Of a stretch of DNA of 64,000 bases, positions 1-49,651 are shown piece by piece. The DNA is from Adineta ricciae (Eukaryota), in contig CAJNOJ010000062.1 of assembly GCA_905250025.1 (NCBI GenBank), forward strand, positions 301,974 to 365,973. Reading direction: 5' to 3'. Made by a program: the position numbers and the translations under genes. The notes under the pieces are model-generated. The model was not told where the DNA came from, did not search any database, and saw nothing but the letters and a program-made list of their open reading frames with translations. The number at the start of each line of letters is the position of its first letter. Position 1 is the first letter of the stretch.

Positions 1-193
1 ACTAAGGATTTTTACTGAGATCGAAGTTTCTCTCGGGATCGAACTATATTGAAATTAATCTTAACACGCACTTTATTACGCACATACGTCAATGGCAATC
101 TCTCAAACACCTGGATTAAAATCTAACAAACAATATTGATCAGACAAAGCGAATCTCGCGAGAGTTCGAGAAACTATTTAATTCAATAGCTAC

Positions 194-1879
194 TTGTTTT
201 CATACATTTCACTCAAAATGCTCGTCGTCATCGTGTTTACGTTGTTATTATCAAATATTGTCACAGCTACCAATAATAACGGTCAAAATTTGGTAAAGTT
301 TAATGAAGATACGTTAGCTAAATTACGTTTACCGACGCATCACTTTTCATCAAGCAAAATGTATCAAGAATATGAATTATTCAATGATTATCAATGTGCA
401 ATTGAATGCTTAAAAGATAAAACAGTTTGTACTGCTTACTTATTTGACAGTACCACTAAGAAATGTTCGTTATTCGATGATACAAAGCAGAAAACCGATG
501 ACAATATCACCGAATTGGTATAGTATTGAAATTCATCATCTATTCAAGCATAACGTTTTGGAAAATTTAGCGAGAAAAACTAAGAACTAATGCGTGTGAT
601 CAATTGCAATGTAAACCGGACGCTGTTTGTCTTGGTGAAAATGAACCCAAATGTGTTTGTTTGAACGGAGCATCGACATCAGATAACTGCGATTATATAG
701 GTCAGTTGTTTTTGTTCGATAAATTTCTAAACTGTCTTGTATTTGTTCAAATAGAAATTGGTGTGTGGGGTGATTTCAATGATTGGTCTGGCTGTAGTTC
801 GACATGTGGTGAAGGTTATCAATATCGTAAACGAGATTGTCTGTCAGCAGATGATAAAACCAAGAAGATTTCGAGTGACAAATGTACTGGTAAAGATGCT
901 GAAATTCAACAATGTACGATTAATGAATGTCCAAGTGAGTGAGAGTTACTGGAACTATCAACAGATCGACTTTTTCTGTCTAAAGCTTATGGGCAATGGG
1001 CACCGTGGACGCCTTGTTCAACTTTCTGTGGTATTGGTATTAAACAACGTAATCGTTCGTGTGTACCACCTGGATCAAATTGCGGAAACTATACATTTGA
1101 ACAGCGAGCATGTGGTGAAGCAAACTGCCAGCGTGTTGTTGGTAAAATCGGATTTTCCACTTCATTGTAAACTTGTTAATCTATTGCTCTTTGGAAATAG
1201 GTATTAAAGAAACGGACTCCGCAAAATATCCTACCAAAGGTTATTTAGCTATTCGAGAAGGTGATATCTTATGTATTCCACAAAGCAGTAATGAAACAGC
1301 AAAACATATGGCTGACTTAGTAAGACTCTACCTGTGCTATCGTCTAACACTTTCATATTTTTAATAGGTTTGTAAATCTATTGGTTCGACTCGTGGAGCC
1401 CAATATGGTGAACGAATCCTTAGAGATTTTATTTACTCTATGATAAATTATTTTATTTCTTTTTAGCTGTTCTTACGCCTGTTGGATCGAACTCAACATG
1501 TTATCCAGGTATTCTCTGCGATGGTACAGAAAGTAATTTTCATGAATGTAAATATGAACGTCCACAAACTACAATTGATCATGGTGATTTGTTTGCAATT
1601 ATCACTCGTTGTATCAGTAAGATTGTATTTTCCAAAATAAGTTCTCTAAAAATCATAGAAAATGTCTATTTAGTTGATGGTGGATTTTCTCCGTGGTCTT
1701 CATGGTCTGCATGCACAAAATCTTGTGGAACTGGTGAACAAACTCGTTCTCGAACATGTACACAACCATCACCATCCATGCTCGAATCCGGATTTAATTC
1801 TCAAAATTCGTCTTTGGCTGGAATGAACTGCACAGGAGATTTCACGCAAGTTAAAACTTGCAATGAGCAACAATGTTAA
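194..1879 (+). CDS. Secreted multi-exon protein: signal peptide + PAN/apple-like Cys domain, EGF-like module and three thrombospondin type-1 repeats (TSR)
   Basis: Exon-like ORFs at 194-523 (hydrophobic N-terminus MLVVIVFTLLLS, PAN-like CAIECLKDKTVCTAYLFDSTTKKCSLF), 604-700 (EGF-like CKPDAVCLGENEPKCVCLNG), 758-942 (TSR WGDFNDWSGCSSTCGEGYQYRKRDC...CTINECP), about 978-1142 (TSR WAPWTPCSTFCGIGIKQRNRSCV), about 1480-1610 (C-rich CYPGILCDGTESNFHECKY) and 1676-1879 (TSR SPWSSWSACTKSCGTGEQTRSRTC...CNEQQC, stop). GT/AG boundaries are visible, e.g. donor after DYIG at about 705 and acceptor caaatag before 758. Internal boundaries approximate. Confidence 0.75.
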
Positions 1880-1950
1880 AACATAAACACATCTTCTTTC
1901 TCTCTTTCTTTCTTTCATTTTATTTGCAATAAGAAACATTCAAGATACAT

Positions 1951-2946
1951 TTAACGGAAATATGCGTGGACTGTCCAAACACGATTGTTGGTTGTTATTC
2001 GTTTATGTCGATACATAGCAAATGAACCGCGAAATGACGCATTGGTCGCAGCATATAAAATAGGAAAGACTACACATTTAACAATGAGAAAATAATAGGT
2101 AATTTGTAGTGTACGCTGAATTGTTTTCGTGTTGACAAAAATGATCAATATTCGAATGCTTATCCATGGTAAACAAAGACAGAGGAAAGCTAAACTTAAA
2201 CTTAATACATGCCATGTCATTTTCTTTGCAACTAAATATTCTCTACGATCAATGGAATCGAGTCTTCTTGGCCGTCGCTGACACAGATGACGAATAAGAA
2301 AAGTATTTCCAAGAAAAATACACAAGAGTGGAAACGAAAAGATCAAACCGATTTCTGCGTAGGACATCCATAGTGGATGGTGGATTGAGGTTGCATAGGT
2401 TGTACAAAATGATGTTTGGTTTGTTGTTGATGATGTCACTGTCAGAAGATAACTTGATGAATTGATCATAAATGGAATACCGTAGAAGACAAACAAAGAG
2501 AGCCATATTGTCAGAAGTAATATAATGATATATCTACGCCGAATCGGTTGAAATGCTTTTTTTAAATTGTACAAACGAACAAAAATCATAAAGAGAATAT
2601 TATAGATAATACAAGCTATTGAACAGGATTCTCCGATGGTTAATGCAGCACACAATCTGGATGTTAGGGGCTTATCGTATGCGCTGATGAAACGCATCGG
2701 AAGAACGAAACTTCCGATAAAGAGGTCCACAAATGCCATGCCCAAGACGAACATATTTGACCAATGTTTCCCATCCGAACGAACGATGTAGGTTACGAAC
2801 ACACAAACCTACAATTTCATTTGAATATGAGCGTAAACGATGTTCTCGGAAAGCGAACTTACATTTCCAATGACAATTGCAGCGATCAATACCAATAAAG
2901 CAAGTTTTTCAGGTACAGATGATGAATCTTCGTATTCTATTGCCAT
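1951..2946 (-). CDS. Rhodopsin-like 7TM G-protein-coupled receptor, 2 coding exons (2946..2863 and 2808..1951)
   Basis: Exon 1 is ATG at 2946..2944 encoding MAIEYEDSSSVPEKLALLVLIAAIVIGN (start of TM1), donor GTAAGT at 2862. Acceptor tgtag before 2808. Exon 2 is the 1951..2808 ORF with GMAFVDLF (TM2), later TM helices and an NPxxY-like FPILYAATN. About 313 aa in total. Confidence 0.7.
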
Positions 2947-3637
2947 TTTACTCTTTGAAAAAAAAGTGAAGTAGATAGATTGCATATATAACTTAACGGA
3001 GAATGACGAAGTTAAATTTTCGGATGGTGATTGTCAAGTGGGCGAATACGTGACTTTATTGATAAATTACACTTTACTTTTCCAAAATGTCATAGCAGCG
3101 AGCAATTATATATCAATAGAATATAAATCAAAAATTTTCTTCTTACATTTACGGTGTGTTTATTAACAATCATTGACGAACGATGAATTCATATTATTCA
3201 GGAAGACTACAGTGCTAGGCAACGGTATGTGTGCTGTTTACTGCGAAGAAATTACCGTCCATTAAAATGAGTGTTTAATACTTTGACATCGTTTCTAGGT
3301 GTTCAAAGTGTGACATATTGAATATCAACGGAAATCATGTAGAATACTAGAGAGCATCTTTACCGTTAGATTTTTTTTAGAGATTTATGTGAAAGATGGT
3401 TATCAATTGAGATTGTTTTTCTAAAACTCGTGTTTATTTATAAATTGATGCAAAGGAAGGAAAACGGACAATATATCACAGTGATCAATCAGATAAAAAC
3501 AATTCTATTTCTTCTTAGAATTAGGTCTGCTGGACGATTTCGAGCTACGTTTCTTTGCTCCAGATCTGACTCGAACTGACGTTGTGTTCACTGACTAAAA
3601 CATCAAGAAAGTAATTCGGACAAAAGGTAAAATTGCA

Positions 3638-6600
3638 TCATACTAATGAGGCTAGTGACGTCGAAGTAGAAATGGCTGATCCATCGTCTTGCATAGGTAA
3701 ATGTGCAAAGGCGTTAGCGAGTAACCTGAAATCCTTTTTCTTAAACAACTGTGCATTACGATAGAGTATACCAACAATTGATTGAGATTTATAAAATGAC
3801 TTATTATATTTCATTAAAAAATCAGGATAACATTGTCCATATTTTTTACGAATAGTTTGAATACGACTTTTATCAATTGTATAACCAGTTTTACCCGAAT
3901 CAACTAGAGTGTAGAACTTCGTCATTGTGAACTGCAAAGAAACTTAACTTACTAGCTGAAGCGAACATTCGTGCCATCTCGATAGCTAGTTTTTGACACG
4001 TACGTTGCGAATGCTTTTCCTCGTTCTGATCGACAATTACCGTATGTAAATTGAAAACTTCCCCATAACTTGTTGCGCCTAATGTTGAAAGATAATAATT
4101 AATAACATCTTCAACCGAGATCGGTGTTGGGTGTTTAATCTTCTTCTCAGCTGTGTAATCCAATGGCGGAACTGAAGATCGAAGTTGAAGTTCCGAACCC
4201 CAATAAACCTGAATTCGAAAAAATGTTTAATAAACAAACAATAAAGTCAATTATGAATACTTACAAAATATTTATCACCATCCAAATCGGAACCTGCAAT
4301 CTTATGAAAATCAGGTCCTAAATGTATTTCAATAATTTGATTGTGTACAAGCAATCGACTTCATTTCTACTTACGATCGCCTTTTGTACTAAAAACGATA
4401 ACATCATGTAGGTCATGTAGTTCAGGTAGATCAACAGCATTTAGCACTAACATATCCCCGGCATAAGGACTAAAATTGCAGTGTTATATGGTTTGAAGTC
4501 GTGTCGAATGAAAATTACCATGGATTTTTTGTTACAATGACTTTTCCTTCAACAGATTTATACTGCCGATTAGGGAAAGATTTTTCGTTTTCATCAAGAA
4601 CTTCATAACGAATGAAACAAGTTCCTGTTTCTAGTTTTGTTTCAAAAGCACATCCGAACATATATCGACATTCGTTCACCGGTAACGGAATTTTGTTTTT
4701 TAATAAGTTACTAAATACAGATCAATCATTATTTATATCAACAGAACGCCGAATCCGTACTCAGGGTGAATATACTTTGATGAGGCATTATCGAACCATT
4801 TTTTCTGTAAACGAAGAAAAGTTTCATTTGATACGCCAAGATCTGACATGAGAAGGATGATCTGATTATTTAGTCGCGTTGGTGCTGACCAAAAGAAAGT
4901 CAAACGTTTTTTCTATAACAAACGAATAGATTCATCATACTCGCTACGCTACGTTCACAAATTTCCAAAGTCCAATCATTACATCGGAATTTTTGCATCG
5001 TCGGTCGAATTTTAATGTATAACTCATTAATACTTGATGCAGGATCCACAACTAGAAGACCTTTACAACCAGCCATTCGAATTTGGTAAGCGGACGGCAC
5101 TGTCTATGAAATATACCACGAATATTGTCAAAACAGATCAGATATGTAACTATCGCTCTCAACATACTGAAGCACCTTTAGCTATACGTCGTGCCAAACC
5201 TTTGGAAATCAATCCATTGCCATCGGTGAAAGAGAATCCATTCCGTTCGATGTCATCAATACTTCTGACACATATTTTTCCTTGTTGAATACGTTGGTTG
5301 AAGTCTTGTTCGGTTTCGCAATAAACCAGTTCGATCTGTAAAGGATCAGATGATTTCAACATACATGATTGTATCTACTCACTCCTGTTGAAAGACTTTT
5401 ACTAAACCATAGTCCTAATCTTGCTACATACGTTCCCAAATTGTCAATCTGATTCAATTCCCCTAGCTGTGCCCGTTTCTCTTGAACATCAATCAATGAT
5501 GAAGCCTTGATAAACCAGAACACATGTTCTTTGATTTGTGAATTCGATGATCCAAACAAATGAAAACGATCTCGACCAATCTCAATGCCATTTGTAAATA
5601 CGTGCCGGAAATGATCTGTATCTTCGTTCAGATAGGAATCAGGTGGATCGGGTTTTAAATAAACAACACAGAAATTCTTGCTACCACCGAATGCTTTATG
5701 ACGCATAGCACGATGTCCGATAGTGTCTTCGTCCTTTGGCATGATAGAAATACGTGTTGGAGTTACATGAATAACACCAGTACGAAATTTATGAATTTTT
5801 GTCTAAAACAATCAGAGATCAGATGAACGTTCGAAGTATTACTGTTGACTTACTGATACAGCAATTTTATCGAATTGTTCTTGGTTGAAGATAGTTGTCA
5901 AATCGAGCCAATGACATTCTTGAAGATTCTGAAAAGCTTGTACTGCTAACTGATAAAAACGTTCTTCATTTTCTTCAGATAATTCAACCATTCTTCCTTG
6001 CAGCTGATCGTTCATCAGATATTTATCATCAAATAAATATCCCAATGAATGCAGCAGCGCCATCGAATAAGTAGCGTCGGTAGTTGGATACCAATTAAAT
6101 TCAATCGTATCCCATGATTTACATGAACTCTGTTCGATGGAAATGTTTGTATAGACGATATCATCTTTACATGTGTGTCGTAGATAATCAAGAAACTGAT
6201 CAGCGAAAGCTTTCGAAGCAATACGTATGACTATTTCACTGCACCGTCGAAGCGACATGATCAGTGGATCATGACCGTTTAATCTAAACGTAGATTTATA
6301 GAACTAAATGAATAGTTTAGTTCACCAATAGATTTCACATACTTCGAACTTCGTCTACCATTTATGATCTGTTCTGCTTTTATCAATTTATTCATATTCA
6401 TTATGATATTTGTATGAGTACTAGTATCGACAACGAAGATTTGTGTTTTGATTTGTTTCATTAATAGAGTAAAACAGACCGTCACTGCTGAGCCACTTTG
6501 ACATTCTATTCGGCAAGTTTTTTGATCAAGTACCATTGTCCATCGTGGTGTGTCATCGAATGGTAAATCTATGCTATGGACGATGAACTTTGAAGTCGAT

Positions 6601-6990
6601 AGTAAAGAACCGAATGAAACATGAATGTCGTCATCAGTTTGGTTATAAATTGATTTACACGCATATCTAGGATCACGAGGTACGTTCATTGAAAACCAAA
6701 TTTGAGGATACTGATGCGCGAGCTTGACAAGATTCGAACGAATTTCGTTCGCTTTTGTTATTTGATGTAAACAAGAAAGTCGTGCTTTATTTTTATTCCA
6801 TTTTGTGCGAATGTCGAAAGTTGAAGCAATGCAGGCACGCGCATCAGCGGGTACATTGAAAAAAGTACATCTAATAGATCCTCTAAAGAATACAAAAATG
6901 ATTGGAGTTTAGACAAATTCATCACTACATAAAATACCAACTTTTGCTCGGTCATCATTTGCGAATAAAATGTTTTTCTTTCTGTTGACA
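3638..6990 (-). CDS. Cellular (eukaryotic-type) RNA-dependent RNA polymerase, RdRP/RDR family, about 10 exons
   Basis: Minus-strand exon ORFs at 3638-3937, 3900-4163, about 4270-4330 (GSDLDGDKYFV, the DxDGD catalytic motif, followed by donor GTAAGT), about 4400-4560 (SPYAGDMLVLNAVDLPELHDLHDVIVFSTKG, matching the PChHPGDhR region), 4900-5100, 5356-5742 (RDRFHLFGSSNSQIKEHVFWF, the RdRP hallmark R..F.FSSSQLRE..WF), 5839-6258 and 6279-6900 (N-terminal domain). Stop at 3638. 5' end unresolved, somewhere at 6900-6990. Confidence 0.8.
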
Positions 6991-7759
6991 CTCTACGGTT
7001 GAAAACGAAAGTAAACTACAGTAAAACAACATTCCCTTTTTTCCCCGTTAATCAATTATTCACTGGGTTTTTTTTCAGTCGCAACTCTCAAAACAGCGAA
7101 TGAGATTATTCACATTGAGAGATTCTCATTACCAATCGACACCGAGATCTGAAATATGCAGAGATTTCGTGCAAGAAGTTCATTTCCTGTTGTAAATAAA
7201 TAATAACTTAAAGAATAAAGGTAAATCGATAAAATAAAAATATAACACGGTTAACAAAGAAGAGATAGCAAACAAAAAATAATTTTCAAACAAAAAAAGT
7301 CAGTTCTCAAACAATATTAATAATCAACGTCGAGCATGATTTTGTTCTTTTTCTCTCTCCGAATCATCAATTGAGATTACAACGTTCGACTAGAGTATTC
7401 GTCTTAACTCAGCTTATGGAATGTAATCTAAGGCGCATAGTGAACATGTTTAAAATGCAATAACAGATTTAAAAAAAAAGTCAAATAAAAAGGAAGCGAG
7501 TAATGAATGTTTGACTATGAGCTAGATTATTTCGTCATCGATTATGGAGTTAAAACTGCTCGTTCGAGGTGCCATCGTTGTTTAGGATTATTTTCTTGCT
7601 GGCATGGTGCTAGAAGAGAATTGTTCATATAAAAACGATTTTTCAGCAATTCGACTTACTAAGTAACACTTTGCCCGATTGAGCTTTCTCATCAACCGTC
7701 ATACATTGACTAGATTTGACGTGTTTCATATGCTTCGTCTAGAATTATAAATAGTCGAA

Positions 7760-10614
7760 GAATGAACATTATCAATAGTGAGAGGAAAGCTACTTGGTTG
7801 TCGTAATTCCAGGTTTGTCTATTATTTCCATTGGAACATTTCTGTAGTTTAACAACCGTGTTTGCAATAGCTTCCAAGCAGAGATCATCAAAACGAAGTT
7901 GTCCGTTCTTGGAGTGGATTAAAATCTATGGAAAATGAAAACATCTCAGCAAATTTCATGATAATCTTAAACTAAAGTGTGTAAATAGAAAGAAAACGTA
8001 AATGTAATAATGTGTTAGTTTCGATTAATATGTGAAAATATTTGAAAACAAACATGCATCGATTTGAAATTTCTGATCTACTCGATCTTTCGTTTGTATT
8101 CAAATCTGCTGCATTTCAGATTTCAAATACGACATATGTTTTCATGCAAATCAACCTGTGTTCTATTCTCAGCTAGGAAGACAACGGCAAACAATCATGC
8201 AAAACGGAATAATGCAGATTTTCTTTTACATGCTCTATTTTCCAACCTGATTTATCGCTGTCAAAGGTGAATCTGTTCGATCCAAACAGCCTTGCATGTG
8301 AAGTGCAGCTGTATGATTTGTCTTTTGACTACTGAATCCATTACGAACAGTCAGGCAACCTCTCAGTTCGTTACGTATCTAAAACAAATCGAAGAAAACC
8401 GATTAATATACACACCTGATTGGTACTTTTATGTTGACAAGGAGAAATGCCTGCGTTTTGATTCGCTCCATTGTCAACATTATAGCCCAGTGAATCAGCA
8501 CAACCGAATCCTTCGTTTCTTAACTAATTAATGTGAGAAATAGAGGTTGCAGATAAGATAATAAAATTCAATCTAAATGATGACCACAAGAATAAAGAGG
8601 AATAGACTCACCGCTCCGACGTGGTGGAAGTGTATCGGCATTGACGTTTCAGGATAGATGTTTTCTAGGTACCATTGAAAATCTTTACATTGAAGTTGTT
8701 TTCGTAACTGAAGACGTTCAGATACATCACCGGCTTCCACTCGTTTCAAGTCTATATGAATAATCAGGATGCTTGAGGTCAGTAACAGAAGAATACGAAC
8801 CAGGCATAATTGTGTAAATGAAATCTTTGTATTTATCAAGCCATACTTCTACAAGTCGTTTGTTGTTATGAAAGATTACAGTTCCTGTACCACCAGGAAA
8901 TGTGTATGGCGTTTGTTTACGAAAAACATGACCAACATGACTACCTGGAGGAATGAAAAGAAAACGAAAGGAATTTGATCACATTTGAAACTGAATACGG
9001 ATGGACTTACATGGATGGATGAGAACTTTGCCACCACATTGCCATACACGAAACGACATTTCCAAATTTTCACCACCCCAGACTTCCATACCCGGATCAT
9101 AAGCTCCTATTTCATAAAAATACGCCCGATTAATTGTAAACAAACCACCAGCCATAGTTGGAGATCTATGAAATCGTAAATAAGATTTATCTAGGAAGAT
9201 CAAGGCTTTTTTCGTACAGTAATGGAAGTGAATGATCATTATTTCGTCGAATTTCCTCTCGTTGTGGAACTGGATACCAACGAAAATTCAATCTCCAATT
9301 AAATCCACCCTGAAGAGATAAGAGTTCCAAAACATTAACTTCAGACATGGAATTTTTAACGTACCCAGGTCATGTCACTACCAGTTAAATAAGCAAAATC
9401 GTTATCGCTAATGACATCGATAATCGGACAGACAACTGCCGATCTAAAGAATAAAAGTCAATTCTTCATGTGGTCAGTGCAAGGTAATATCATGCCTATC
9501 TTTTTTCACTTCATACAATAAATATTCCAGCCAACCAGGTGAACATTCGATGTGTGCATCGAGAAAAGTCAATGTATCGCCCGATGCTACTTCAGCACCT
9601 GAAATCCAATGAGAACAATTTTACATGACTGTACTAATCGTATGTGACTCTATACCTCGCAGACGAGATTTCATAAGTCCTAGTCGATCATTATTTCTTA
9701 GTACATGAACTGATACTGGCAAATTTTTTATGAATGTTTCCAATGTATCTTTTAAATATACTAAAAAAAAAGAGTAATTAAAATAAAAGAAATGGAAATC
9801 AAGTAAATGCTTTACCTCGATTGACACTAGCATCGTCGACCAAAATAATTTCTTTTATATATTTTATTGGACTGCGCAGTATGATACTTGTTAATGTACG
9901 GAGTAATGTTGAATTGCCTTCATTATGAAATACAATAACTATTGATGTAGTTGGTAAATCATCTGGAAATTTATGCGATAAGCAACTACAGTGGAAAGAA
10001 ATGAGCTTTTTTGTCAAATGAAAGTGTATATATACCTCGGTGATCGTTGATCTCTTATTGTTCGATTTAGAGCGACAAGGTCTGAAGCAAGAATATTAAA
10101 TTGGTTCTCTAAGAAACGCCGTTTTGCTTCTGATTGTAAGTCAGCAGGTATGACGACCGCACGACCACCTTCACCATGCCAATTAGGTGGATTGGTTGCA
10201 CCTAATATAACGAAAAGCAAAACAGTCTATTTTATTCTTCAGTTTATAATTCAAACCTGGTTCAATTTCCCACCATCGACGAATAGCATTTGTCTTAGCT
10301 ATGACATTTGCTATTCCATCGCCAAATCGTGTTCTATTTCGATATTTTCTTCGATTGATACCCATCGTTGGCTGTACTGGAAGACTATGATGAACTGTAT
10401 ATGAATGATTATCAACTGATAATGCTGAGGTTTGCGGACAAGGAACAATAATTTTTTTCGTACAATCAGAGAATAACATTATAAAAAACACGTCAATAAA
10501 TATCCAAAATAACGATGTATATATAATTATATGCAGATATTGTCGTTTCCATAGTCGAAAACGTTTGAATAGAATATCACTTGGCGTTGATTGATAAGGT
10601 GAGAAAGGATTCAT
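7760..10614 (-). CDS. Polypeptide N-acetylgalactosaminyltransferase (ppGalNAc-T, GT27), type-II membrane protein with C-terminal ricin-B lectin domain
   Basis: ATG at 10614 (MNPFSPYQ...) with signal-anchor [26 protein letters not shown] core exons [30 protein letters not shown]...ILVDDAS (9799-10017), [19 protein letters not shown] (9621-9833) and [15 protein letters not shown] (about 9480-9600). Gal/GalNAc-T motif exons [26 protein letters not shown] (8979-9239) and [21 protein letters not shown] (about 8840-8960). Ricin-B QxW exon RQTWNY at about 7790-7920. 3' end approximate. Confidence 0.8.
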
Positions 10615-12039: not shown

Positions 12040-14348
12040 CTATTTTCTTGTTCGTTTCGATAGTTTCTCGATTTCTTTGCTCAACGTATCCACATTTTCT
12101 TTCAATGTAATATTTTTCAAAAGTGTATCTTCTAAAACCGACTGTAATTTCCCCATGATATCCAATGATGTTTCCAACGTCATCGGTGCTGACTGATCAA
12201 AGATTTTGTTTGCTGTTGAGCTGCTACCGGTTGCTGCTGTCGTTGTCGCACGATTGTATAACGTTGCCATCAATGATGTGGATGTTGAATTCGTTCGAGT
12301 TTTATTTGCTAATTGTTGTTTGGCTAGATCGGATTCATTCGACGTATACATAAAACCGTCAGCATTCATTGCATAGGCTTGTATAATCTTGCGTTTGTTT
12401 TGCAGATCTTGGGTGAGTAATTGAATATGATCATTGAGAAATTCGATTTTTTCATTGCGTCGTACGAGTAGTTTTTGTTGTTTTAGTAGTTTGTCAATTA
12501 ACTTTTGACGATCGATATCAACGATACTGACCACGACTTCTTGTTCATCATCGGCAGGAACTAATTGTTGGTGTTGTTGTTGCTGATGATGATGATGATT
12601 ATTATTATTATTAGCAGAAGAAGTGACAGAGGGTTGATCAGATGTTGAAATGAGCACAGGCGGCGTCATATCGTTTAGTGAACTATAGGAGCCTGTCGGA
12701 GATCCACGGCCTGATGAATGATCACCGAGATTCTCTTTAACTGGAATGTTTCTTGTTTGACTAAATGATTCGAATGCAAAATTAATTCAAACATCGTTTG
12801 AGTCGTTTCTTGAAAATACTCACCTAGTTTGCAATGCAGGTGATGATGCATCATCATGAGCTGTAGCTTTCGTTTTCTGTAATTGTTGCAATTGTTTGAT
12901 TAAATCTTTCGTATTTGCTTGATGTTTCTTCTTCAACGTTTGTATTTCAATTAAACTATCATCGTATTTTTTGACAATCTCTTCATGTGATTTGCTTAAA
13001 CTTCCAAATATCTCTTCTAAGTCTTTTAACTGATCTCGTAAAGCCGTTTCCGTAGTTTCCAATTGTGCGATTCGACTGTGTTGCTCCTCATTGAGTTTCT
13101 TGAGACTATCATGATGTTCACTAATCTTTTTATGGACTATTTCAAGTTGCTCGTAATTAGTTTGTAGAACGGAATTTTTCTCAGTTAATTTTTGAGTTAA
13201 TTCCAGATGTTGATGTTCTTTCTCGAGCAATTGTCTTAAATCAGCATTATCTGCTAGAGTTTGATTGTGAAGATTTTCGATTTGTTTTAAACGAGAGATT
13301 TCAATCGAGTCTTGTTCACGTGCTGCTAACAGATCATCGTACAATTTCTTGTTGGTTTCTTTGTCACGAACGGCATTTAGACGGAAATTTTCAATGACAT
13401 TCTCTAACGCTAAATGATCTTCAGTCGCTGACTTGAGTTTCTCGAGAAATCGATTATTTTCCTCTTGGACAACAGCTAACTGGGACTTCAGTGCATTGTG
13501 TTCGTTAAGTAACGTATCGAATGCTTGTGTACGTTCATCGTCAGTGGGAACGGCTTGAACAGCTAAATGGAATAGGTTGAAGTGATGAAAACGATTAGTA
13601 TGAAAGGTTTACTTTCAGTTAGTTGTTTGCATTGTGAATTGAGTTGCTCGTTAATTTCGCGTTGTTCGTTCAGATCTCTTTTTAGACGTTCATTCAATTC
13701 TCGTTGTTCTCTTAATTGTTGAGATTCTCCTTTCAAGTGATTTAACGTTGATTTTAACGTCGCATCGATGGATTGATTCAATTCTTTAACTTTTTCCAGT
13801 TCTTTTCTCGTTGTATTTAACTCTGCTGCTTTATTATCATACGCTTGTTGTAATTTCGTATTCATCAATTTAAATTCCGATAATTTCATCTGTAAATTCT
13901 CTTTTTCTTTAGTTAAATCAGCATTTTTCGCTAATAATGTGTCACAACGTTTATCCGAATCTAATTTAGCTTTTTCGGCTTGGGCATAACGCATAACAGT
14001 CGATTGTTTCTCGCGCGAATAATCGTCTTTTTGACGAGCTAATATCGTTTCGTAATGTTGTTGGCAAGCAACTAAACGTGCGTTGAGTTCAGCAATCTCA
14101 CTGCTTTGATTGGCAACAGTTGTTGTCAGATTGGCAATTTTAATTTCATCTTCACTTATCAAAGGTTCAGACGGAACAGTTTCTAAATACAAAATCAGTC
14201 ATATTGCTGCACAAACGAAAGAAAATATTTTACCAGTCGCTTCGGTCTCTTGAGTATTGTGTATTGGTTCATTCTCAGTTGGATTATCTCCGACATCAAC
14301 TGACGGTTTTTCACCGACCGTATCATTTGAATGATCACTTGCATCCAT
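12040..14348 (-). CDS. Long coiled-coil protein of about 730 aa, 4 coding exons, with His/Gln-rich and Ser/Thr-rich C-terminal region
   Basis: Exons 14348..about 14236 (MDASDHSNDTVGEKPSVD..., donor GTAAAA), about 14192..13578 (ETVPSEPLISEDEIK... heptad-rich), about 13565..12822 (AVQAVPTDDERTQAF...KATAHDDASSPALQT, donor GTGAGT) and 12757..12040 (SQTRNIPVKENLGDHSSGRGSP...HHHHQQQQHQQ..., stop). Splice phases checked at each junction. No specific family recognised. Confidence 0.7.
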
Positions 14349-14717
14349 GAGATCTAATCTTCAATGAGATCAGATGAAATTCATCTAGAAAGAATTCCAC
14401 ATAGCAAATGATGCTTGTCTGTTTATGTCTCTCTTCACTCGATGCACAAGACCCAACAACAAAAATAAACAAAAAAGAAAAGAATATATTGTTCTCTTCG
14501 TCAAAGACATATAAAAAGAAAGAAAAAGAAAAAGAAAATAGTTAGTAGCCGTATGTATATATATTTCGAAACAAAAGAATAGATTGATTAATTTGACAGT
14601 CTGTTTTCATCTTGCTTCGCTGTAGAATTATGTACACAGAAAGCGACAAAATAAAGTTCACGAGTAACAATGCGACTAGAGTCCGGAAAATGACAAAATA
14701 AAGAAAGACAGTGCAGA

Positions 14718-16454
14718 TTATTTTCCATACAATTGGGCAAGAAAATCGCCAAGACTGATGAATGTCGTCGGATCTGTTCGTTGAGTATGATTCCATATGT
14801 AGATAGCTAAGCCACTTATAGTTAACGTCACGCCCCAAAGAACTATACGTGGTAGAGGAGTAGGCTGTTCGTTATGATCGATTGTGTCCGAGGTTTTCCC
14901 TTCATCATTATCAGTTGGAGAAGAATCTGTGCCGTATCGTCTGCGAAGAATAGTCTCCATTGAAGGATTGTCGATTGATTCACTAAGAAGAAGAACAAGT
15001 AAATAGAACAATTTTTCTTGAAACATGTAAGTGAAATTCTGTGTACCATTTTCTTCTCCATTCGTCATTTAGTACATCGAGCGTATCTGGATGATGGTTT
15101 CGAAATAACTGCAGAGATCGTTTGATAATCTCTTCCCAATGACTGACCGCTAAATCACTGGGTAAACGTGTTAAGTATGGATGTAATGATGCCATATCAC
15201 AATCAATGGATAAAACTTGTTTCGAATGAAAATTAACGACCTAATCAGTAAATATATGATCAATTAGTTCTTCCTATGGAAGAAACGAAAAAAATCAATT
15301 ACTTCAGCAGCAACATAAATTGGCATGAGAAAATGTGAAACAATGAAGAGATCGTATAGTCGAAGGATTGTATCAAGATTATCTAACACATGTGAATACC
15401 ATGTGATGAACCATGATAATGCAAACATGACATTTCCAACACCGCCTCTGTAGTTATATATCAAAGGAATACAACAGATCTAATCTTGGAATGGTTTCTA
15501 CCTTTGCATATATTCCGCACATTCACTATTGATACAGTTGATAAGTGGCATTAGATAAGAAAGTAAATCACAAGTTTTCTTCATCGTTGGCTCCATAAAA
15601 TCTCTATAAAAAACATCGGAAAATGCTCGTGTTTAGATTGGAGAAAGATACTCACTTGAAATGCGACTTTGTTATTGTATCAATAAATGGAAGACATAGA
15701 TCTGCACCCAGCACAAGTAAAAAACTCAAACAGATATCATGATAACCCTGGAAAGGTAGGAGAACGTTGGTTTTCATTCTACATTCGTCAGCAATTTACC
15801 TGATAATAGTTTAGATAGTCATGTTTAATTAACATTTTAACAATAATAACAATCAACTCTTCTTGCAATTCAATTCGATCCGATTCGGAATAATCTGTAG
15901 AAGAGACAATCATGGAAAATTTCTTTAGAAGATAGTTTCGTACTTGGCGGAAATCGTTTGAGCGTTCTTTCAACATCCATTCGGACTTGACCATAGTATC
16001 TATGTGATTCAATTTGATTTTTATCTAAATAGATCATTGAGTAAACGAATAGATTCGAAAAACGGAAGAAGAATGTACCTGCGGCATAATAATCAATCGG
16101 ACACGAATATTTTCTATTTACTTGATCAAATTCTACTGGACAATATGTTGGAAAATGGATTAATAAAGGCCAAATCTGTTGCCGATATGATTCTGATATC
16201 AGTCCATTCATTTTGGCGTACTTTTGTAGTTTTTCAATGTTGTTTTTAACGAGATACTTCTCAATTCGATCGATTTTTGTTTTCGTAACGACTAAAAAGT
16301 TTTCATCATCACTCAACGATAATGATCCATTGGTTGTTATGGATGACGAAATTAATTCCGAATGTGCATCTTCCATCACTGCTGAATCATGATCCGAATC
16401 CGAATCCGAGCTGTTCTCATCCAGATAATGATATTCATCAATAGTCCCCATCAT
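14718..16454 (-). CDS. TBC1D20: TBC-domain Rab GTPase-activating protein, TBC1D20-like, with C-terminal transmembrane segment
   Basis: ATG at 16454 (MMGTIDEYHYLDENSSDSDSD...). TBC motifs YRQQIWPLLI (RxxxW), QVRMDVERTLKRFPP (IxxDxxR arginine-finger region) and YLNYYQ|GYHDICLSFLLVLG across an intron (YxQ motif, as in TBC1D20 YYQGYHDI). Further exons at 15264-15464, 14983-15195 and a C-terminal hydrophobic exon WGVTLTISGLAIYIW (14718-15068). Confidence 0.75.
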
Positions 16455-16623
16455 AAGAGAAACAAAATGAAACTAAGATATTATCTTATGAATTCAACCG
16501 TAGGAACATATGTGGCAATCGGTAATGATGAATAGTTTGTTGTTTTCTTCTTTCTAAATAACGAATTTGTTGCATTTAGGAGCCACTAGTTATGCAAGAA
16601 AGAAAGAGAATGTAGCTCGCTCT

Positions 16624-19600
16624 ATGTTGTTGTCATTGTGGAACAAGGTAGCCAATAGAATCAATTGTAAGTCAAACAAAACGAGATTTTCATTTTGTTT
16701 CATGAATGGATCTTCGATGATTGCTAAAAAATTTTATCTTATCGGTGGACTATGTCTGATTTGGGGAATATTCGGTGTCGAGAGAACGATTTATTGGTTA
16801 TTTCTATTCCTAACAATCGTTTTTGGGTTGGTTCTTGTTTGATTTCTTCTGAAACTATTTGACTCATCTTTAGTTTCATTCTGCATTTGATTATTCACAA
16901 ACAAACATGGGCGAAATCCAATTCACTCTATGAACATATTAGAATATCATTTGTCAAAGCAAAACTACTTACACACGTAAGAAAAACACGAAATGATCGG
17001 GCAAGTGTATCATTAATAATGAGTTTTGTTGTTGTAGATTACTGATATCGAATTCGATTCATTATCACGTTCCAAACCATCGAAGACATTAAATGATCGT
17101 GCATCATTAACAGGAGTATCTGATATTGATGAGCCACTCTATGAAGTAAATGGAGCTCTCGGAGACGAATAATTGAATTTTTGATTATGGTTTTCTAGTT
17201 AATCGATTTGTTTGTTCGTGATTATGTTGAAATTTGGTACAAAACTCAATTAAGTTCAGATGAACTATTCGTTGAAGATGTCAAAAATGGCATTTACACG
17301 GCGATTCGTCATCTATCTGAAAGGTACTTTTCATATTTTCCATTCTCATCAATTGCACTACTTTCTTTTTGTATTAGATTGCGTGAAATCGATTGGTTAG
17401 AGTTTTGTACGGGAACAATCGTCGATAGTTTTGCTACGCATGTTCGACTGTATCGAAAAGCTAAAGAACGTATGCGTTTGGAACAATCGACAGACATTCG
17501 TTCGTGCTTCTTTGATTTGGAAGCAGAATACGAACGAGGAATTTGTCGCGATGATGTCTGTATGGATAAAGACAAAGAAAAAGGTTTGTGCACTAGTTTT
17601 CTCTCAACTTTGATCAAGAAAGACGTCCTCTACTAGAGTTTCTTCGAGATATCGTCGAAGTTCTTTTGTATATACTTCTTCCGGCGAATGAATTCCGTTG
17701 TGTACCAGCTCGAATTCTCATTCGAGTATGTTCAACGAATCGATCGAGTCACTTATGAATTAGATTTGTTTTCAATAGGAAATTGCAGTCAATCTAGGTT
17801 TAATACCATTCATTGATATGTATGCTGATCCTGACGCCGTCAATCAATTGATTATCAAAATGGTAGAATGAACAAGAAAAGAGAATTGTTTTACACAAGT
17901 TTCTATTTAGTGTCAACAAATTCCATTAACCATCGACAATTTCCTTCTAGTCGTTCGAACGACTGACTCCAGAATGGAATTAAGTACACTATTAGAAAGA
18001 CTTGATATTGAGACAAGCCGGTGGAGATCGAAAGACACCGGAGGAGAAAACGGTAATCGTTCTTTTTTTTTTCTTCTTCGTAATTCGATGTTTATCCAGA
18101 TGCCGACGTGCGAGCTGTACTAAATAGTTATCAATATCTGAAAAAATTACTCAACGAACGATTGGAAGATCAACTTCGATTGGAACCTATGATATTTGTT
18201 CGTGTTTTTGTTGTTGATGAATCTCATCGACGTACTTCGTGTTATTTATTATTCAGGATGATGATGATTCGGTATCAAAAGTATCTTATCGAGAATTGCC
18301 ATTGACAGAAATTCTAAACAATTGCAATGGCTTAGACTATTTTTTAAGTAAGTTCGATTTTAAATAAGATGACTTTTTAAAAATAAGACGTATTTATAGA
18401 ATTTCTGCAATCGATCGATGCTGTTGGGTATGGAAGTTTTTACTTGAATGCAGAAGTATGTCTAATTGGAATGAACAATTGTATTTTGATGGCATTTTTA
18501 GGCATTCCGATGTGCTGGGATAACAGCAGTTCAACAGAATGGAAATATGACTGAAGAACAACATCAATCAAATCAGGCAATCTTACGAAATATGGCAACT
18601 GATCTTATCGAACAATATTTTCTTCCGACTGTAAGTATCGTAAGTGAATTGCATAGCAAATTGAAAGTTTACGTCATTCAGGGTACATTCAAATTACCTA
18701 TGGATGAAAATCTCATTCAAAAAACACTGAAAGCTCTACAAGCACAAACAATCGATGAAACACTACTGGATGAACTACAAACAAAAGTATGGTCTTTACT
18801 TTTCTGTACATCGTCACTTCGATCACGGTCTTTCATAGGTTTTCGAAATTCTCTCATCTGATAAATACTATGGTCAGTTCAAAACGACATCACAATATTT
18901 GAAAGTTTTAAGCGAAATTGATTTCACCGACTCACTTGCTGATAATTCCGGTAAGATTTTCTCGCCATACAACTAATCAAAACCTATTCCGTCCATGTGA
19001 ATCTAGATGCTCTGTCATTATCGAGTAATAATAGTAATGAAATCTTGAATGACATCAATGAACCTCACCAATCAAGTCCAGGAAGTAGTTCGAGTAGTGC
19101 ATCAGCATACGTACCTGATCTGCTTGATAATGTTGACAACTATGTAATCACTACTGAAATCAATGATTCCGGTGAGATCGATGCTATTGATAGGATACGT
19201 AAGACGTGTGCTTTGTAGGTATATGTTGTGAAAAGGGTGAAAAATATGCAATCTATGTGATATCTGTGTCTTGTAAATCATTAAATCCGATGATGGATGA
19301 TCAAAAACGTGAATGGATAACATATCGTCGTTACAGTGAATTCAATGATCTCCATATGACAATTAAAAAACGTTATCCCGCTCTGCGTGAGTTTATTCAG
19401 TTACCTAATAAGAGCTTTATGAACAATACCAGTCAAGAAATACGATTGAAACGGCAAAAAGAATTGAATGATTATTTAGCTGTAAGTTCGATCGTTTATC
19501 TTTTTATTTAGAACTCTTTTAAACCTTCTTTCAATTGTAGACATTAACCAAACCGAAGGTTCTACACAATAATCCAGGCCTTGGCGAACTCTTGCTCAAA

Positions 19601-27076: not shown

Positions 27077-30000
27077 ATGGGTGTGCTAAGTTCCCCGTTG
27101 AATGGCAAAACATTTGTGCTCGAACTTGGTCGAGATGTTCGTTTTAAAGCTAAACAAGAACTAATTAATTATCTACGTGAACAACATGCTCAGATTTCGT
27201 ACATTTTAACAGCTAGTGTAGGTTTTTCTTCTCCCTTGAACTCTCTTCCTCTCCGAAAATCTTCATCGATTAAACTTCATTTTACTCTAGACGGATTATG
27301 TTTTGGTTTCGAATGATATTGACACGTATAAAACTCGTCGAGCAAAGCAGCTCGGCATTCCATTGGTGAACGTTGATTATATTCATGAATATCGTAAATC
27401 AACTATTGGAAAAGAGTCAATTGACATCAAACGATTCATTGTTACATCGGCCGAAGATAAAGAAAATTTCTCCAAAACTGGCACCATACCAGTTGCAGGT
27501 TAATAGATATTGTCTTTGCAGAAAATTTATGTTAATGAAATGTTTCATTTCATTTCATTTCAGGAGGAGGCAGTTCGTCAAGTAGTGTAGTAAAACCTGT
27601 AAAATTTGATGTATCGAAAGTTAGGATCTGGAATCACGATGACGTTGAATTGCCGCGTTTTGATGAAATAACCCACGCTGAAATCGGTAAATGGGCCATT
27701 TTTAAGGTATAAATGTTTAGGAAACAGAAATAGATGATCGAAGTAGCATTGTTTTGTTTTTCGTTTGATAGGAAACAAATGATCATTCGGATGTTTATTT
27801 TGCTCTTGAATTACAAATTATTCCGGAAGAATATTTTTATCAGCAAGCGAATAGTGATTATCAATTTCGTTTTCGTTACGAAAAGCAGACCATCGTCAGT
27901 TCAAAAGGAAAAACGTCAGTTATTCAGTATGCATTCAGTAACGATATCAATGAATTGCATCAATTATTTGCATCTTATTACTATCGTATTGCAACAATGC
28001 CTCGAATAACACGCATTCGAGATTTATTACCTGATAAATTGGGTTCGAAATTGCTGTTACGCGTAAGTTGTTGAACAGAACGAATTCTGCTTTCGGACAG
28101 ATGGGTTCTTCCATTTCAGTCATTGTTTCTGCATCGAATTGACACACAAATGCTTAACGATGATGTTTGTCAGCTGATCGAGTCACTTTGGATCGAATCT
28201 ATTGGAGATTTGAACAAACTTCTAACTGTTCCACCTGAATCGATCGCTTTGAAAGCAGTATGAAAATATAGAAGGAGAAAGTGTAATGAGCTCTTTGAAT
28301 ATTTTCCGTAGATTATTGAAGCTGAGGCAGCTTTACTGGAAATCAAATCAAACGATGAATCAGCATCAGAAGCGCAAACGCGTTTTTACTCACTGATTCC
28401 TCATCGACAGCCGCATGTCGTCGATCTTGTTAAAAATCGACGAACTTTGATTGACAAAATCGATTTGTGTCAGGTAAAGTATGAATTTTGAAACTGTTTT
28501 TTGGTCAGACTTCGAATTGTAGATGTTACGTGACATGCTTACTATCAATGAATTGACAAATTGGAATATTAAAGCATCGATCGAAGCGAAATATCGTGCA
28601 TTGAAATGTCACATTGAAAGTATTGAGAAAGATAGTCATGAGTATGCCACAATTAATAGTATGATACATTCGTCCACGAATTCGTATGTATTTTGATATC
28701 TGATGGAGAGATGTCGATATATTTCCCTTGCGACTCTTGTAGGAACGAAGAAGTTATCGTTCATCAGATTTTCAGCGTTGCTAAACAAACCGATGCGTTG
28801 AATTTTCGTTCGACACTGTTCAATCAACGACAACTTTTTCATGGTTCGAAATACAATAATTTTCTGGGCATTCTGTCACGGTAAATCATCGATTCGTAAA
28901 AGCTATTCTGTTCAATTTTCATTTCTTTCTATGCTTTCAGTGGTTTAATGTTGCCGAAATTGGTCGTCGATGACTTGGGAGTGACTCGTACTGATTTCGG
29001 ATGTCTCGGATATGGAATCTATTTTTCGGATTCGGTTTCTACATCTCTAAAATACACAACACCGAGTACAACGCGTCCTGGTCGCCGATTACTATGTATA
29101 TCTCAAGTAGCATTAGGTGAATCAGCGAAATACTATTCCTATGCAGCAAATTTAACACAAGCACCCGAAAATTTCCACAGTACACATGGGATAAAGAAGA
29201 CCAGTGACAATAATTCGAAGTTTATTGTAAGTATACTTCTTGTTATTGTAGGCAAATTTTCAAAATGGACTATTTAGGATGACGAATATGTTATTTATAA
29301 TCTTGACCAACAGCGATTATTGTATATTGTTGAAGTTTCATGGAAACCACATGATAATACCGATCAAGTATTGAAAGTATTACCGATTGTTCGTGATTCT
29401 TTACTTAATCAACTTCATAGCATGAAAAGTGAAAGTAAATGAAGAGCTTTGCACAACTTATCTTCGTTTAACATGACTTTTCCAATTTTGTTTTGTAGTC
29501 GTTGTACCATCATCAATCGAAGATGAAGTAATTCAAGTAGCCGAACAAGATTATGGTTTAATTTGTCCATCATCTGGTCAACTGGTTCCATTGAAAGCGT
29601 TCCATATTCGTGCTCAACTTGTCGATGTAACTGCTGAAGTATGTGGAATGATTTTCTCCTTTCAGTTCATCTTTTCTACAAAATACTTCTTAGGTTGTTC
29701 TCTACCAAGTTTATCACAACACAAGTTCAGTGCCGATCGAAGCCAAATATGTATTTCCACTGGATGAGAACTGCTCCGTTTGTGGTTTCGAAGCTCATAT
29801 TAATAACAAAGTTATCAAAGGTGTGGTCAAAGAAAAGGAACAAGCAAAACGTGAATATCGTGAAGCAATTGAAAAAGGTCATGGTGCGTATTTGATGCAT
29901 CAAGAACAACCTGAAGTGTTCAGTGTGTCCGTTGGTAATCTACCAGCCAATTGCGAAGTGGTCATCAAAATTACTTATGTCGCCGAATTACCTATTGAGA

Positions 30001-31934
30001 ATAACGATATTATCTTTCGTTTTCCAGCCAAGGTAGCTTCATGGCAATCGAAGCAAGCTCTAGAATCGAAGGATCAAACCATACTCCCGTCCATTAGTCT
30101 TGAACGAGATGATTCGCTAATGAAATCGGTAGAGTTTAGCTTGAAAGCATCTGTGCGCATGCCGTATGAAATCAGTAAATTATTCTCTCCAACACATCGT
30201 CTTCGTCGGAAAGTAACCGATTGTGTAGCGATGATCGAAATGGTTGACAACGTTCTCTTAGACAAAGATTTTCTTCTCTCGATAGCACTGAAAAATATCA
30301 ATGTACCACGCATGTTGAACGAAACATACACTGTTTCTGATGAAAATAATAACGTTGAGATGAATGATGAACAATCTCAAGCGTGTATGTTGACATTTTA
30401 TCCAAAATTCGAAATGACAACTAATACGAATGAATTCGTGGAAGTTATTTTCATTATTGACGTGTCGAACTCGATGGATGGACAGCATGTACAACAAGCC
30501 AAACAGTTGGCACACCTATTTCTAACAAACATGAAAAACGACGATGCAAACATTTATTTCAATATCGTTACATTCGGATCAGGTAACTTATCGAATGTTG
30601 AAAACTAATGCAAGTTGTTTTTCATCATTTCATAGATAATGATGAATGTTTTCCAATTTCCTTACCAAATACAAAGGAGAACATCGATAAGGCAAAGCAT
30701 TTTGTTCTGGTTTGTATTGTTTGTCTTTTTTTTTAAATGTAATACTTCTTTTAATGTTATAGCATTCGCTTGATCATCGTGGTAATACTGATCTTTTCAC
30801 TGTACTTCGTCAGTATTCTCTTTTACCATCTCCATGTAAACTTGGCCGACAATTTATTCTTCTCTCCGACGGGCATGTCAATGATCTGAATTCGATTCTG
30901 ACTTTACTAGAAAATCAATCGTCTATGAAACATGATCGTTTCTTTACCTGTTCAATCGGTGACACATCAAATAAGCATCAACTCAAACAACTAGCTAACG
31001 GAGCACATGGCGGTGGACTGACCACTGTGTTTGATTCAAACTTCCGTTCACGATGGAAATCAAAAGTTCTTCTCATTCTCGAACATATTCGTCAACCATG
31101 TGTAACCAACATATCAATTGATTGGCATGGAACTATCGAAAATGAACAGGTGAGATTTACCAATCAAGCACCAAATATAATCCGTTCATTATTCAATGGT
31201 ATGCGTTTAACTGTGTATCGTTTCATTCAAAATTGTCATAAAGCCACCTTGACAGCAATGATTAACGATCAAGAATTTGTTACTACTGTGTTTAGTAATA
31301 AGATGACTGAAACAAAAGGACGAATTTTACATTGTTTGACTGCACGTGCGATTATACATGATTATGAAAATGGTTTGTTGCATACCGATGAAAGTGAAAA
31401 CGAGCTGATCAAAAAACAATATAAACAAGATCTAATTGATTTAAGCGTAAAATATTCAGTCGTCAGTTCATTTACAAGTTTTGTAGCAATCGAAGAACGA
31501 GATCGTGATGAAGTACTTGAACCAGGTAAGACATATTCTTCGAGGCCGAATCAAGCAATGCCTTTTTTGTCTGTCATTTAGGTGTTCGACTACTTGATGT
31601 AATGCTTGAATCAGATATTGATCTATTACCATATATTGGCTGGGATGGTGATCGATCCCAAATAGAGATAGTGAAAGAGAAGCTATTGAATGCCAAACGT
31701 TCATTTGAAAATGCTTCGATTTCGAACAAACTTGAATTAACTCAGGAGTATGAGAAACTTTGTCAAAATATATCGTACCGGTCGGGTGGTGATGCTAAGT
31801 ATGATTTAATGCTAGCAATTATTGACACGTACCGAACAACATTGAAAGATAATAGTAAAGCGTTGGAATTGGAAGAAAAAATTCAACTTGGTAAACTTGA
31901 AAGTACTGTCATTGATTGGTGTCGACTGATTTAG
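27077..31934 (+). CDS. PARP4: Vault poly(ADP-ribose) polymerase, PARP4/vPARP-like: BRCT - PARP catalytic - VIT - vWA - C-terminal region, many exons
   Basis: ATG at 27077 with BRCT-like exon (MGVLSSPLNGKTFVLELGRDVRFKAKQELINYLREQHAQISYILTASV). PARP catalytic signature across 28690-29300 (LFHGS..., GIYFSDSVSTSLKY, LLCISQVALGE, catalytic-Glu region DEYVIYN). VIT domain at 29730-30060 (VFPLDENCSVCGFEAHINNKVIKGVVKEKEQAKREYREAIEKG). vWA with MIDAS motif at 30440-30600 (VIFIIDVSNSMDG), continuing at 30660-31581. C-terminal exon 31602-31934 (stop TAG). A further possible terminal mini-exon 31949-32045 could not be settled. Confidence 0.8.
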
Positions 31935-49200: not shown

Positions 49201-49651
49201 TTCGAGACAATTCCAATTCTGCACGGAGACGAAAACTGTCATTTTTAATATCTTCAATATTAATCCATCGGAAAGATAATTCAACTTTCTCGATCGTTGA
49301 ACGAACAATAGCCGGAACAATAACGTAAAGTACAAGTAAAGCACCGACAAGGATTAGAAGTAGAATAATTGCGATACATAGAAGAATAAAATATTTTCGC
49401 CGCATTTTGATACCTTTAAAACGGCCACACATTGTGCACAATCTGACTTTCTTCGTCGACGATTTCATTGGTAGATCGAGCCAATTGACTTCCTCTTCCT
49501 CATCATTGAACGATGTGACTATGTTTTCTTTATCACTAGAGTTCTTGAAACTAGTTTTTACATAATCCCTTTCATAACCGTCAGTGTAATCATTCGTCTT
49601 GCTAGATGTTTTTATATAAGCTACCGAAGGATCCGATTTTTTTCCACCCAT
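46225..49651 (-). CDS. Large (about 1100 aa) type-II single-pass membrane protein whose ectodomain is built from repeated beta-rich modules with ...NP... strand motifs resembling LEA_2/WHy (DUF3712-like) domains, 3 exons
   Basis: First ATG at 49651 (MGGKKSDPSV...). TM anchor YFILLCIAIILLLILVGALLVLYVIVPAIV. Exon 1 ends about 48784, exon 2 about 48732..47770, exon 3 about 47631..46225 (stop). Repeated motifs IEIANPSIFTIDLGT, TTIGNPGVTDVQLENFELLMADG, KTKITNPSVVNIRDAGRLSLDL and LVLKNPFSSSIAVTKMDVRADFG each sit about 100-120 aa apart. Family call tentative. Confidence 0.6.

Follow-up and report, generated by a model that had tools for sequence, protein, structure and literature searches.

The window analyzed here comprises 64,000 nucleotides (nt) of the bdelloid rotifer Adineta ricciae (contig CAJNOJ010000062.1, positions 301,974 to 365,973 of the forward strand), and carries on its minus strand a gene for a cellular RNA-dependent RNA polymerase (RdRP). 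The original prediction, made from the letters alone, had recognized the gene, assigned it the limits 6990-3638 and estimated about 10 exons. We find a coding sequence (CDS) that runs from 6958 to 3505 over 13 exons and encodes a protein of 935 amino acids (aa); the 12 introns all have GT-AG borders and measure 47-64 nt. An exact-sequence look-up showed the 935-aa model to be identical, residue for residue, to GenBank entry CAF1003182.1 (UniProt A0A814GZX8_ADIRI), an Adineta ricciae protein on a 456-kb contig that already bears the name 'RNA-dependent RNA polymerase'. Two independent predictions thus agree on the splicing, and the gene was already annotated. Being present in UniProt and part of a published expansion, it is not a new finding, and the sequence-only call was accurate.

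The short first exon (6942-6958, 17 nt) encodes MMTEQK from the ATG at 6958, with a second in-frame ATG at 6955, and is followed by exon 2 (6343-6882, 540 nt), to which the N-termini of homologues (MxE..CTFHxV) align, and by exon 3 (5854-6283, 430 nt). The PF05183 domain begins in exon 4 (5383-5802, 420 nt), which also holds the second of the two motifs on which the original prediction was built: RFHLFGSSNSQIKEHVFWF, at 5568-5512. The range given for it there, 5356-5742, is that of the enclosing open reading frame (ORF). Exon 5 (5168-5335, 168 nt) leads to exon 6 (4941-5103, 163 nt), which contains PSAYQIRMAGCKG, and to exon 7 (4761-4884, 124 nt). Exon 8 (4519-4710, 192 nt) ends with the residues ...VTKNPC, and exon 9 (4375-4469, 95 nt; PYAGDMLVLNAVD...) contributes to the second double-psi beta-barrel. 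The catalytic Asp-triad loop, GSDLDGDKYF, is encoded at 4294-4265 in exon 10 (4265-4317, 53 nt), where its last codon abuts the donor GTAAGT (4264-4259), just as had been predicted. Alignment to the plant enzyme RDR2 places the bridge-helix region in exon 11 (3953-4208, 256 nt). Exon 12 (3644-3903, 260 nt) carries the DSGKTG motif, and within it the PF05183 match ends; exon 13 (3505-3594, 90 nt) encodes a basic low-complexity tail (...SGAKKRSSKSSSRPNSKKK) closed by the stop codon TAG at 3507-3505. A likely polyadenylation signal, AATAAA, lies on the same strand at 3433-3438, 67 nt past the stop.

Both ends of the gene called for a choice between alternatives. A first splice model, in which open segments were joined through canonical GT-AG sites, had 12 exons and 865 aa and began at the internal ATG at 6689. 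This start was rejected: homologues carry ~70 more N-terminal residues, which are encoded here at 6882-6690, and because they start that much earlier (M-x-E-...-C-T-F-H-x-V) an extra short first exon is needed. Intron 1 could use either of two in-frame donors: a GC donor, or GTTGGT 6 nt further downstream (at 6941). The GC-AG intron, which would employ the donor site of the long-form ohnologs and leave an 11-nt exon 1, was rejected in favor of the weak GTTGGT donor, because the latter matches the position in the Adineta vaga ortholog (14-nt exon 1, GTAAGT donor) and yields the public protein exactly. At the other end, termination at 3638 does not hold: the TGA at 3640-3638 is skipped by a 49-nt intron (3643-3595), beyond which lies the 90-nt last exon, conserved in the A. 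vaga ortholog with the same length, frame and stop position. A further, partial entry, CAF1100761.1, equals the C-terminal 435 aa of our model and shares its last base. It is partial because its contig, CAJNOR010001222.1, starts at window position 5242, inside exon 5; nt 1-5242 of that contig correspond to window positions 5242 to 1 with 100% identity. CAF1100761.1 is the representative of its 90% cluster.

The assignment to the RDR family is borne out by Pfam. Queried with the 865-aa draft of the spliced protein, PF05183 matches with an expectation value (E) of 1.2e-106 and 358.2 bits, against a cut-off of 23.8 bits, and the match reaches position 581 of the 582 in the profile. It is the sole match: no other family was found at E<=0.01, including the palm-domain viral RdRP families (e.g. 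PF00680, PF00978 and PF00998). In an alignment of 27 sequences the core motifs are intact and fall in invariant or near-invariant columns: SNSQ..W, PSAYQIRxAGCKG, TKNPCxxxGD, DLDGD and the Lys of DSGKTG. The S, Q and W of the RFHLFGSSNSQIKEHVFWF motif are invariant. The catalytic loop (aa 725-734) aligns with GGDLDGDQFF of RDR2, where DLDGD lies at residues 828-836, and the Lys of DSGKTG aligns with RDR2 K923, a proposed trigger-loop residue. The protein is thus, as judged from these motifs, a eukaryotic cellular two-barrel RdRP defined by PF05183, the Asp triad and the other core motifs.

Among solved structures, Arabidopsis and maize RDR2 are the best matches (~1e-48) and Neurospora QDE-1 is far weaker (7e-19). 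The fold was judged by proxy, using a predicted model of the ortholog from Rotaria sp. Silwood2 (P0001), which shares its architecture and is 57% identical to it. This AlphaFold model has a predicted local distance difference test score (pLDDT) of 85.5 and a predicted template-modelling score (pTM) of 0.81. It matches maize RDR2 with E=3e-44 and TMq 0.69; template-modelling (TM) scores are ~0.7 for maize and Arabidopsis RDR2 and ~0.5 for QDE-1. Through the ortholog model, a fold of two double-psi beta-barrels like that of RDR2 and QDE-1 is predicted for the A. ricciae protein, and by the same analogy its N-terminal domain would be RRM-like.

The surroundings are those of a resident rotifer gene. 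As anticipated, the locus is metazoan: besides the DNA identity with contig CAJNOR010001222.1, the neighboring single-exon G-protein-coupled receptor (GPCR) ORF at 1951-2802 has a 100% identical counterpart among A. ricciae proteins. GC content is ~35% and flat over the gene and its flanks. The genes in the window follow the order MOZART1 (~11.6-11.8 kb), a GalNAc-transferase with a ricin domain (~7.6-10.6 kb), the RdRP, the seven-transmembrane (7tm) GPCR and a TSP1-repeat gene. A. vaga chromosome CP075493 has this order too, continued there to malic enzyme, and Rotaria sp. Silwood2 shares the upstream part (MOZART1, the GalNAc-transferase and the RdRP). A second A. vaga locus, on CP075496, has a 1268-aa RdRP followed by WD40, 7tm, TSP1, glucokinase and malic enzyme genes, and is presumably the ohnolog copy left by an ancient bdelloid genome duplication. 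No second RdRP copy was found in the window, the CP075493 locus or the Rotaria locus.

The WD40 neighbor varies between loci. In the A. vaga ohnologous locus (14428-18188) and in Rotaria (14219-17960) the RdRP is followed by a 600-aa WD40 gene in tail-to-tail orientation; this gene is absent between RdRP and GPCR both in the window (2990-3505) and in the A. vaga orthologous locus. An ORF with WD40 repeats and a U-box (PRP19-like) does occur in the window, at 59837-60940 on the minus strand; it shows no similarity to that neighbor at E<1e-6, and the neighbor itself is missing from the window.

Gene structure is conserved as well. Re-modelled, the A. vaga ortholog has 13 exons of 14, 537, 430, 417, 168, 163, 124, 192, 95, 53, 256, 260 and 90 nt. 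The A. ricciae exons measure 17 (14 from the second ATG), 540, 430 and 420 nt, the remainder being identical; those of 430, 163, 124 and 256 nt recur with the same length in the Rotaria ortholog as well. The A. vaga frame is open over 932 aa, 67% identical in amino-acid sequence, with DLDGD intact and the same basic tail. Its public model comprises 826 aa (CP075493 locus, 5647-8669) and appears 3'-truncated, because the 932-aa, 13-exon frame projected from A. ricciae runs to 9138. In the Rotaria ortholog, SSLGGD replaces SDLDGD (aa 734-740; locus 13555-13607), so that only one of the three catalytic aspartates remains, with reading frame and exon structure otherwise intact.

Comparison with the A. 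vaga ortholog gives a ratio of nonsynonymous to synonymous substitution rates (dN/dS) of 0.225 overall at a dS of ~0.93 (Nei-Gojobori, NG86). The ratio falls to 0.096 for aa 621-830, a stretch that includes the catalytic barrel, and is 0.34-0.39 at both termini. The gene is under purifying selection.

A neighbor-joining (NJ) tree was built from 663 columns with 200 bootstraps and three outgroup sequences (amphioxus, plant and fungal RdRPs). The window gene, its A. vaga ortholog and the Rotaria ortholog group together, both nodes at 100%, and the long forms, including one from A. ricciae (P0005), lie outside this group. The bdelloid sequences are united against the three outgroups with 100% bootstrap. 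In the homolog search the bdelloid hits were 32-58% identical to the query (closer copies 43-58%) and the best non-bdelloid hit 30%; a separate profile search missed nematode, tick and most fungal RdRPs. Because of this, and with only three outgroups, the tree gives no alpha/beta/gamma placement. With a bdelloid host and bdelloid nearest relatives that group apart, the gene belongs to the bdelloid-specific RdRP expansion.

Cellular RdRPs are rare and patchily distributed in animals, so that finding one is usually noteworthy. The original prediction was right about the patchy distribution and overestimated the surprise in the present case, since bdelloids have the largest documented animal RdRP repertoire (PMC7943196). 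The mean number of PF05183 genes per genome is 38.9 in bdelloids, versus 2.5 in monogononts and 0.6 in a eukaryote sample, and a gain of 27 RdRP copies is inferred on the bdelloid stem (Nowell et al. 2021, eLife, PMC7943196). The same study, with A. ricciae among the genomes analyzed, describes two bdelloid-specific clades, RDR I and RDR II, outside the main metazoan clades, and no viral-type RdRPs in bdelloid proteomes. The proposed roles are silencing of transposons and foreign genes, possibly by amplifying secondary RNAs resembling PIWI-interacting RNAs (piRNAs) (PMC7943196). Bdelloids, with ~39 RdRP copies per genome, are thus the documented exception, and the expansion has been proposed to offset asexuality via stronger transposon silencing. 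Animal RdRPs are in any case more widespread than once thought (Pinzón et al. 2019, PMC6396948).

At the C-terminus the protein departs from the plant enzymes. The part that aligns to RDR2 extends only to about residue 964 of its 1133, the point at which neck helix 3 passes into the head domain; beyond it there follow ~66 residues, ~45 of them of low complexity, and then the stop codon. The next gene lies ~520 nt beyond 3505, and no relic exons of any C-terminal domain were found in the window or in the A. vaga and Rotaria loci. The C-terminal alpha-helical head domain of the canonical RDR-alpha architecture is therefore lacking, and because of this the gene is not filed under that architecture. 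Also missing is the ~360-aa C-terminal domain of the long-form ohnologs (1268-1317 aa; sister copy 1272 aa). That domain has no Pfam match, and an hhalign comparison with the canonical head region gave a probability of 0.3%, a weak negative given the shallow profiles. Judging from sequence, the RdRPs of the bdelloid clade seem to have given up the canonical head.

Several other features of the window deserve mention. A 259-aa ORF at 54248-55027 on the minus strand, ~47 kb away from the RdRP gene, has a Tudor domain (PF00567, E=9e-11); proteins with this domain often take part in piRNA pathways. At 46225-49693 on the minus strand, three long ORFs in succession (468, 333 and 319 aa) each match DUF3712 (Tag1-like) and probably form one large intron-poor gene. 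DUF3712 is mainly a fungal and plant family, and on this distribution the gene would be a candidate for horizontal acquisition. The sole GC-rich stretch (43%), at 32352-34278 on the plus strand, holds a 452-aa ORF with Pro-rich repeats and SGLFGSF and FGMFG motifs (FG-repeat-like); it has no Pfam match and is underlain by a tandem repeat at 33550-34020 (78-bp unit, ~6 copies). An ORF with VIT and VWA domains (29730-30608, plus strand) resembles inter-alpha-trypsin-inhibitor heavy chains, an ordinary metazoan gene by appearance. An Rfam scan of the window gave no matches.

Based on these observations, we are confident that the gene (A0A814GZX8) is a resident A. ricciae cellular two-barrel RdRP gene and one paralogue of the bdelloid-specific expansion. 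It would be the short ohnolog of a pair stemming from the ancient bdelloid genome duplication. By alignment, it has kept the slab, both double-psi beta-barrels, the DLDGD triad, the bridge-helix region and the trigger-loop Lys. We infer that it is expressed, that its product is active as a polymerase and that it has a role in small-RNA amplification. The most likely mechanism, which we favor with moderate confidence, is a copying of target RNAs that feeds the small-RNA machinery: (i) the enzyme would copy single-stranded target RNAs, for example transposon or foreign-gene transcripts, into complementary RNA, and (ii) this RNA would enter the expanded bdelloid Argonaute/Piwi machinery as double-stranded RNA (dsRNA) or secondary small RNAs.

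Four points weigh against this interpretation. The protein lacks an equivalent of the RDR2/RDR6 head domain, and in plants silencing is lost when the head is truncated (RDR2 W1083*, a MOP1 insertion at residue 962, several RDR6 nonsense alleles). The substitution of SSLGGD for SDLDGD implies that catalysis is dispensable for whatever role the Rotaria ortholog has. Amphioxus possesses intact RdRPs without detectable secondary small interfering RNAs (siRNAs) (PMC6396948), and for this reason the step taken in the original prediction, from an intact gene to a capacity for siRNA amplification, is plausible but not secure. Finally, the GTTGGT donor of intron 1 is weak.

The amphioxus precedent bears on a reading in which the enzyme is an active RdRP with a role other than siRNA amplification: it could, for instance, make dsRNA or antisense RNA in the service of another regulatory or antiviral process, in line with speculation on the amphioxus RdRPs. 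The Branchiostoma RdRPs are conserved as well as intact, and the functions of the bdelloid clades are stated to be not yet elucidated (PMC7943196). However, RNA silencing is the only established function of PF05183 proteins in plants, fungi and nematodes, and the bdelloid RdRP expansion was accompanied by an expansion of Argonaute/Piwi proteins (PMC7943196), so that we regard a non-amplifying role as rather unlikely.

The missing head raises the question of whether the paralogue polymerizes at all, or has an impaired or absent polymerase activity and acts as an RNA-binding scaffold or as a regulator of its full-length sister enzyme. The loss-of-function head truncations of RDR2, MOP1 and RDR6 speak for such a role, as do the lack of both the head and the ~360-aa C-terminal domain of ohnologs P0005 and P0004, and the two catalytic aspartates gone from the Rotaria ortholog. 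Yet A. ricciae and A. vaga both retain the Asp triad and every core motif, and no part of the gene is under stronger constraint than the catalytic segment (omega = 0.096), which makes a scaffold improbable. The pattern of conservation suggests that in Adineta, and perhaps not in Rotaria, selection constrains the short copy as an enzyme. A tentative extension, which we consider possible, is that the short ohnolog polymerizes without a head and that the duplicates have been sub-functionalized or are being lost lineage by lineage. If so, bdelloid RdRPs would work without the head domain that plants need, and would reveal, as a natural experiment, which portions of a two-barrel RdRP animal silencing requires.

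An origin by insertion of a viral RdRP, or by recent horizontal acquisition at the locus, might be entertained since bdelloids carry many foreign genes, and Nowell et al. leave an ancient horizontal origin of the whole bdelloid clade possible (PMC7943196). The domain is nevertheless of the cellular PF05183 type without a match to viral RdRP families, the 12 short introns are host-like, the GC content is that of the surrounding DNA, and positional orthologs exist in Adineta and Rotaria. Together with the conserved synteny and a dN/dS of 0.23 these features support the view, already expressed in the original prediction, that the gene is resident, and a recent viral or foreign insertion is so improbable that we exclude it. 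Pseudogene fragments not joined in transcripts, for which nothing but the weak intron-1 donor could be cited, have a negligible probability and are likewise excluded by a single frame open across 13 exons, a model identical to an independent public prediction, conserved exon lengths, and a dN/dS of 0.23 at dS ~0.9 from A. vaga. The gene thus withstands both tests proposed with the original prediction: PF05183 is matched, and the exons form a single open frame.

We therefore return to a resident two-barrel RdRP of the bdelloid expansion, for which plant RDR2 (Arabidopsis 7eu0/7roz and maize 7w82, of the RDR-alpha group) is the closest relative of solved structure (E=1e-48). The two are collinear over the slab, DPBB1, DPBB2 (the two double-psi beta-barrels), DLDGD, the bridge helix and the trigger-loop Lys, and the predicted Rotaria model superposes on RDR2 (TM ~0.7) and has an RRM-like N-terminus. 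They differ in that identity is only ~18-20%, the head domain is absent from the rotifer protein, ~45 inter-barrel residues are missing from it (RDR2 654-715 versus ~16 residues), and a partner like Pol IV is not known for it. Neurospora QDE-1 (2j7n, 7y7p) likewise is a two-barrel polymerase with the same Asp-triad loop, but is far more distant (E ~1e-18, TM ~0.5) and belongs to another subfamily.

Within animals, nematode EGO-1 and RRF-1, which synthesize secondary 22G-RNAs, offer the functional precedent of an RdRP that amplifies silencing, although no nematode sequence was among the relatives retrieved by the homolog searches. The best non-bdelloid animal match is the Branchiostoma RdRP Q71BB5 (30% identity, E=3e-55), an intact animal RdRP of uncertain function which, unlike the rotifer protein, retains the canonical C-terminal region ending in ...LSFPWVV. 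The gene is most at home with the bdelloid RDR I and RDR II clades, with which it shares a bdelloid host, the PF05183 domain and nearest relatives that are all bdelloid (43-67% identity), and it differs from the 1268-1317-aa forms as a short, 935-aa ohnolog. The locus thereby offers a clean set of syntenic orthologs and ohnologs in which to follow the diversification of the family, from short versus long forms to the loss of the active site in Rotaria.

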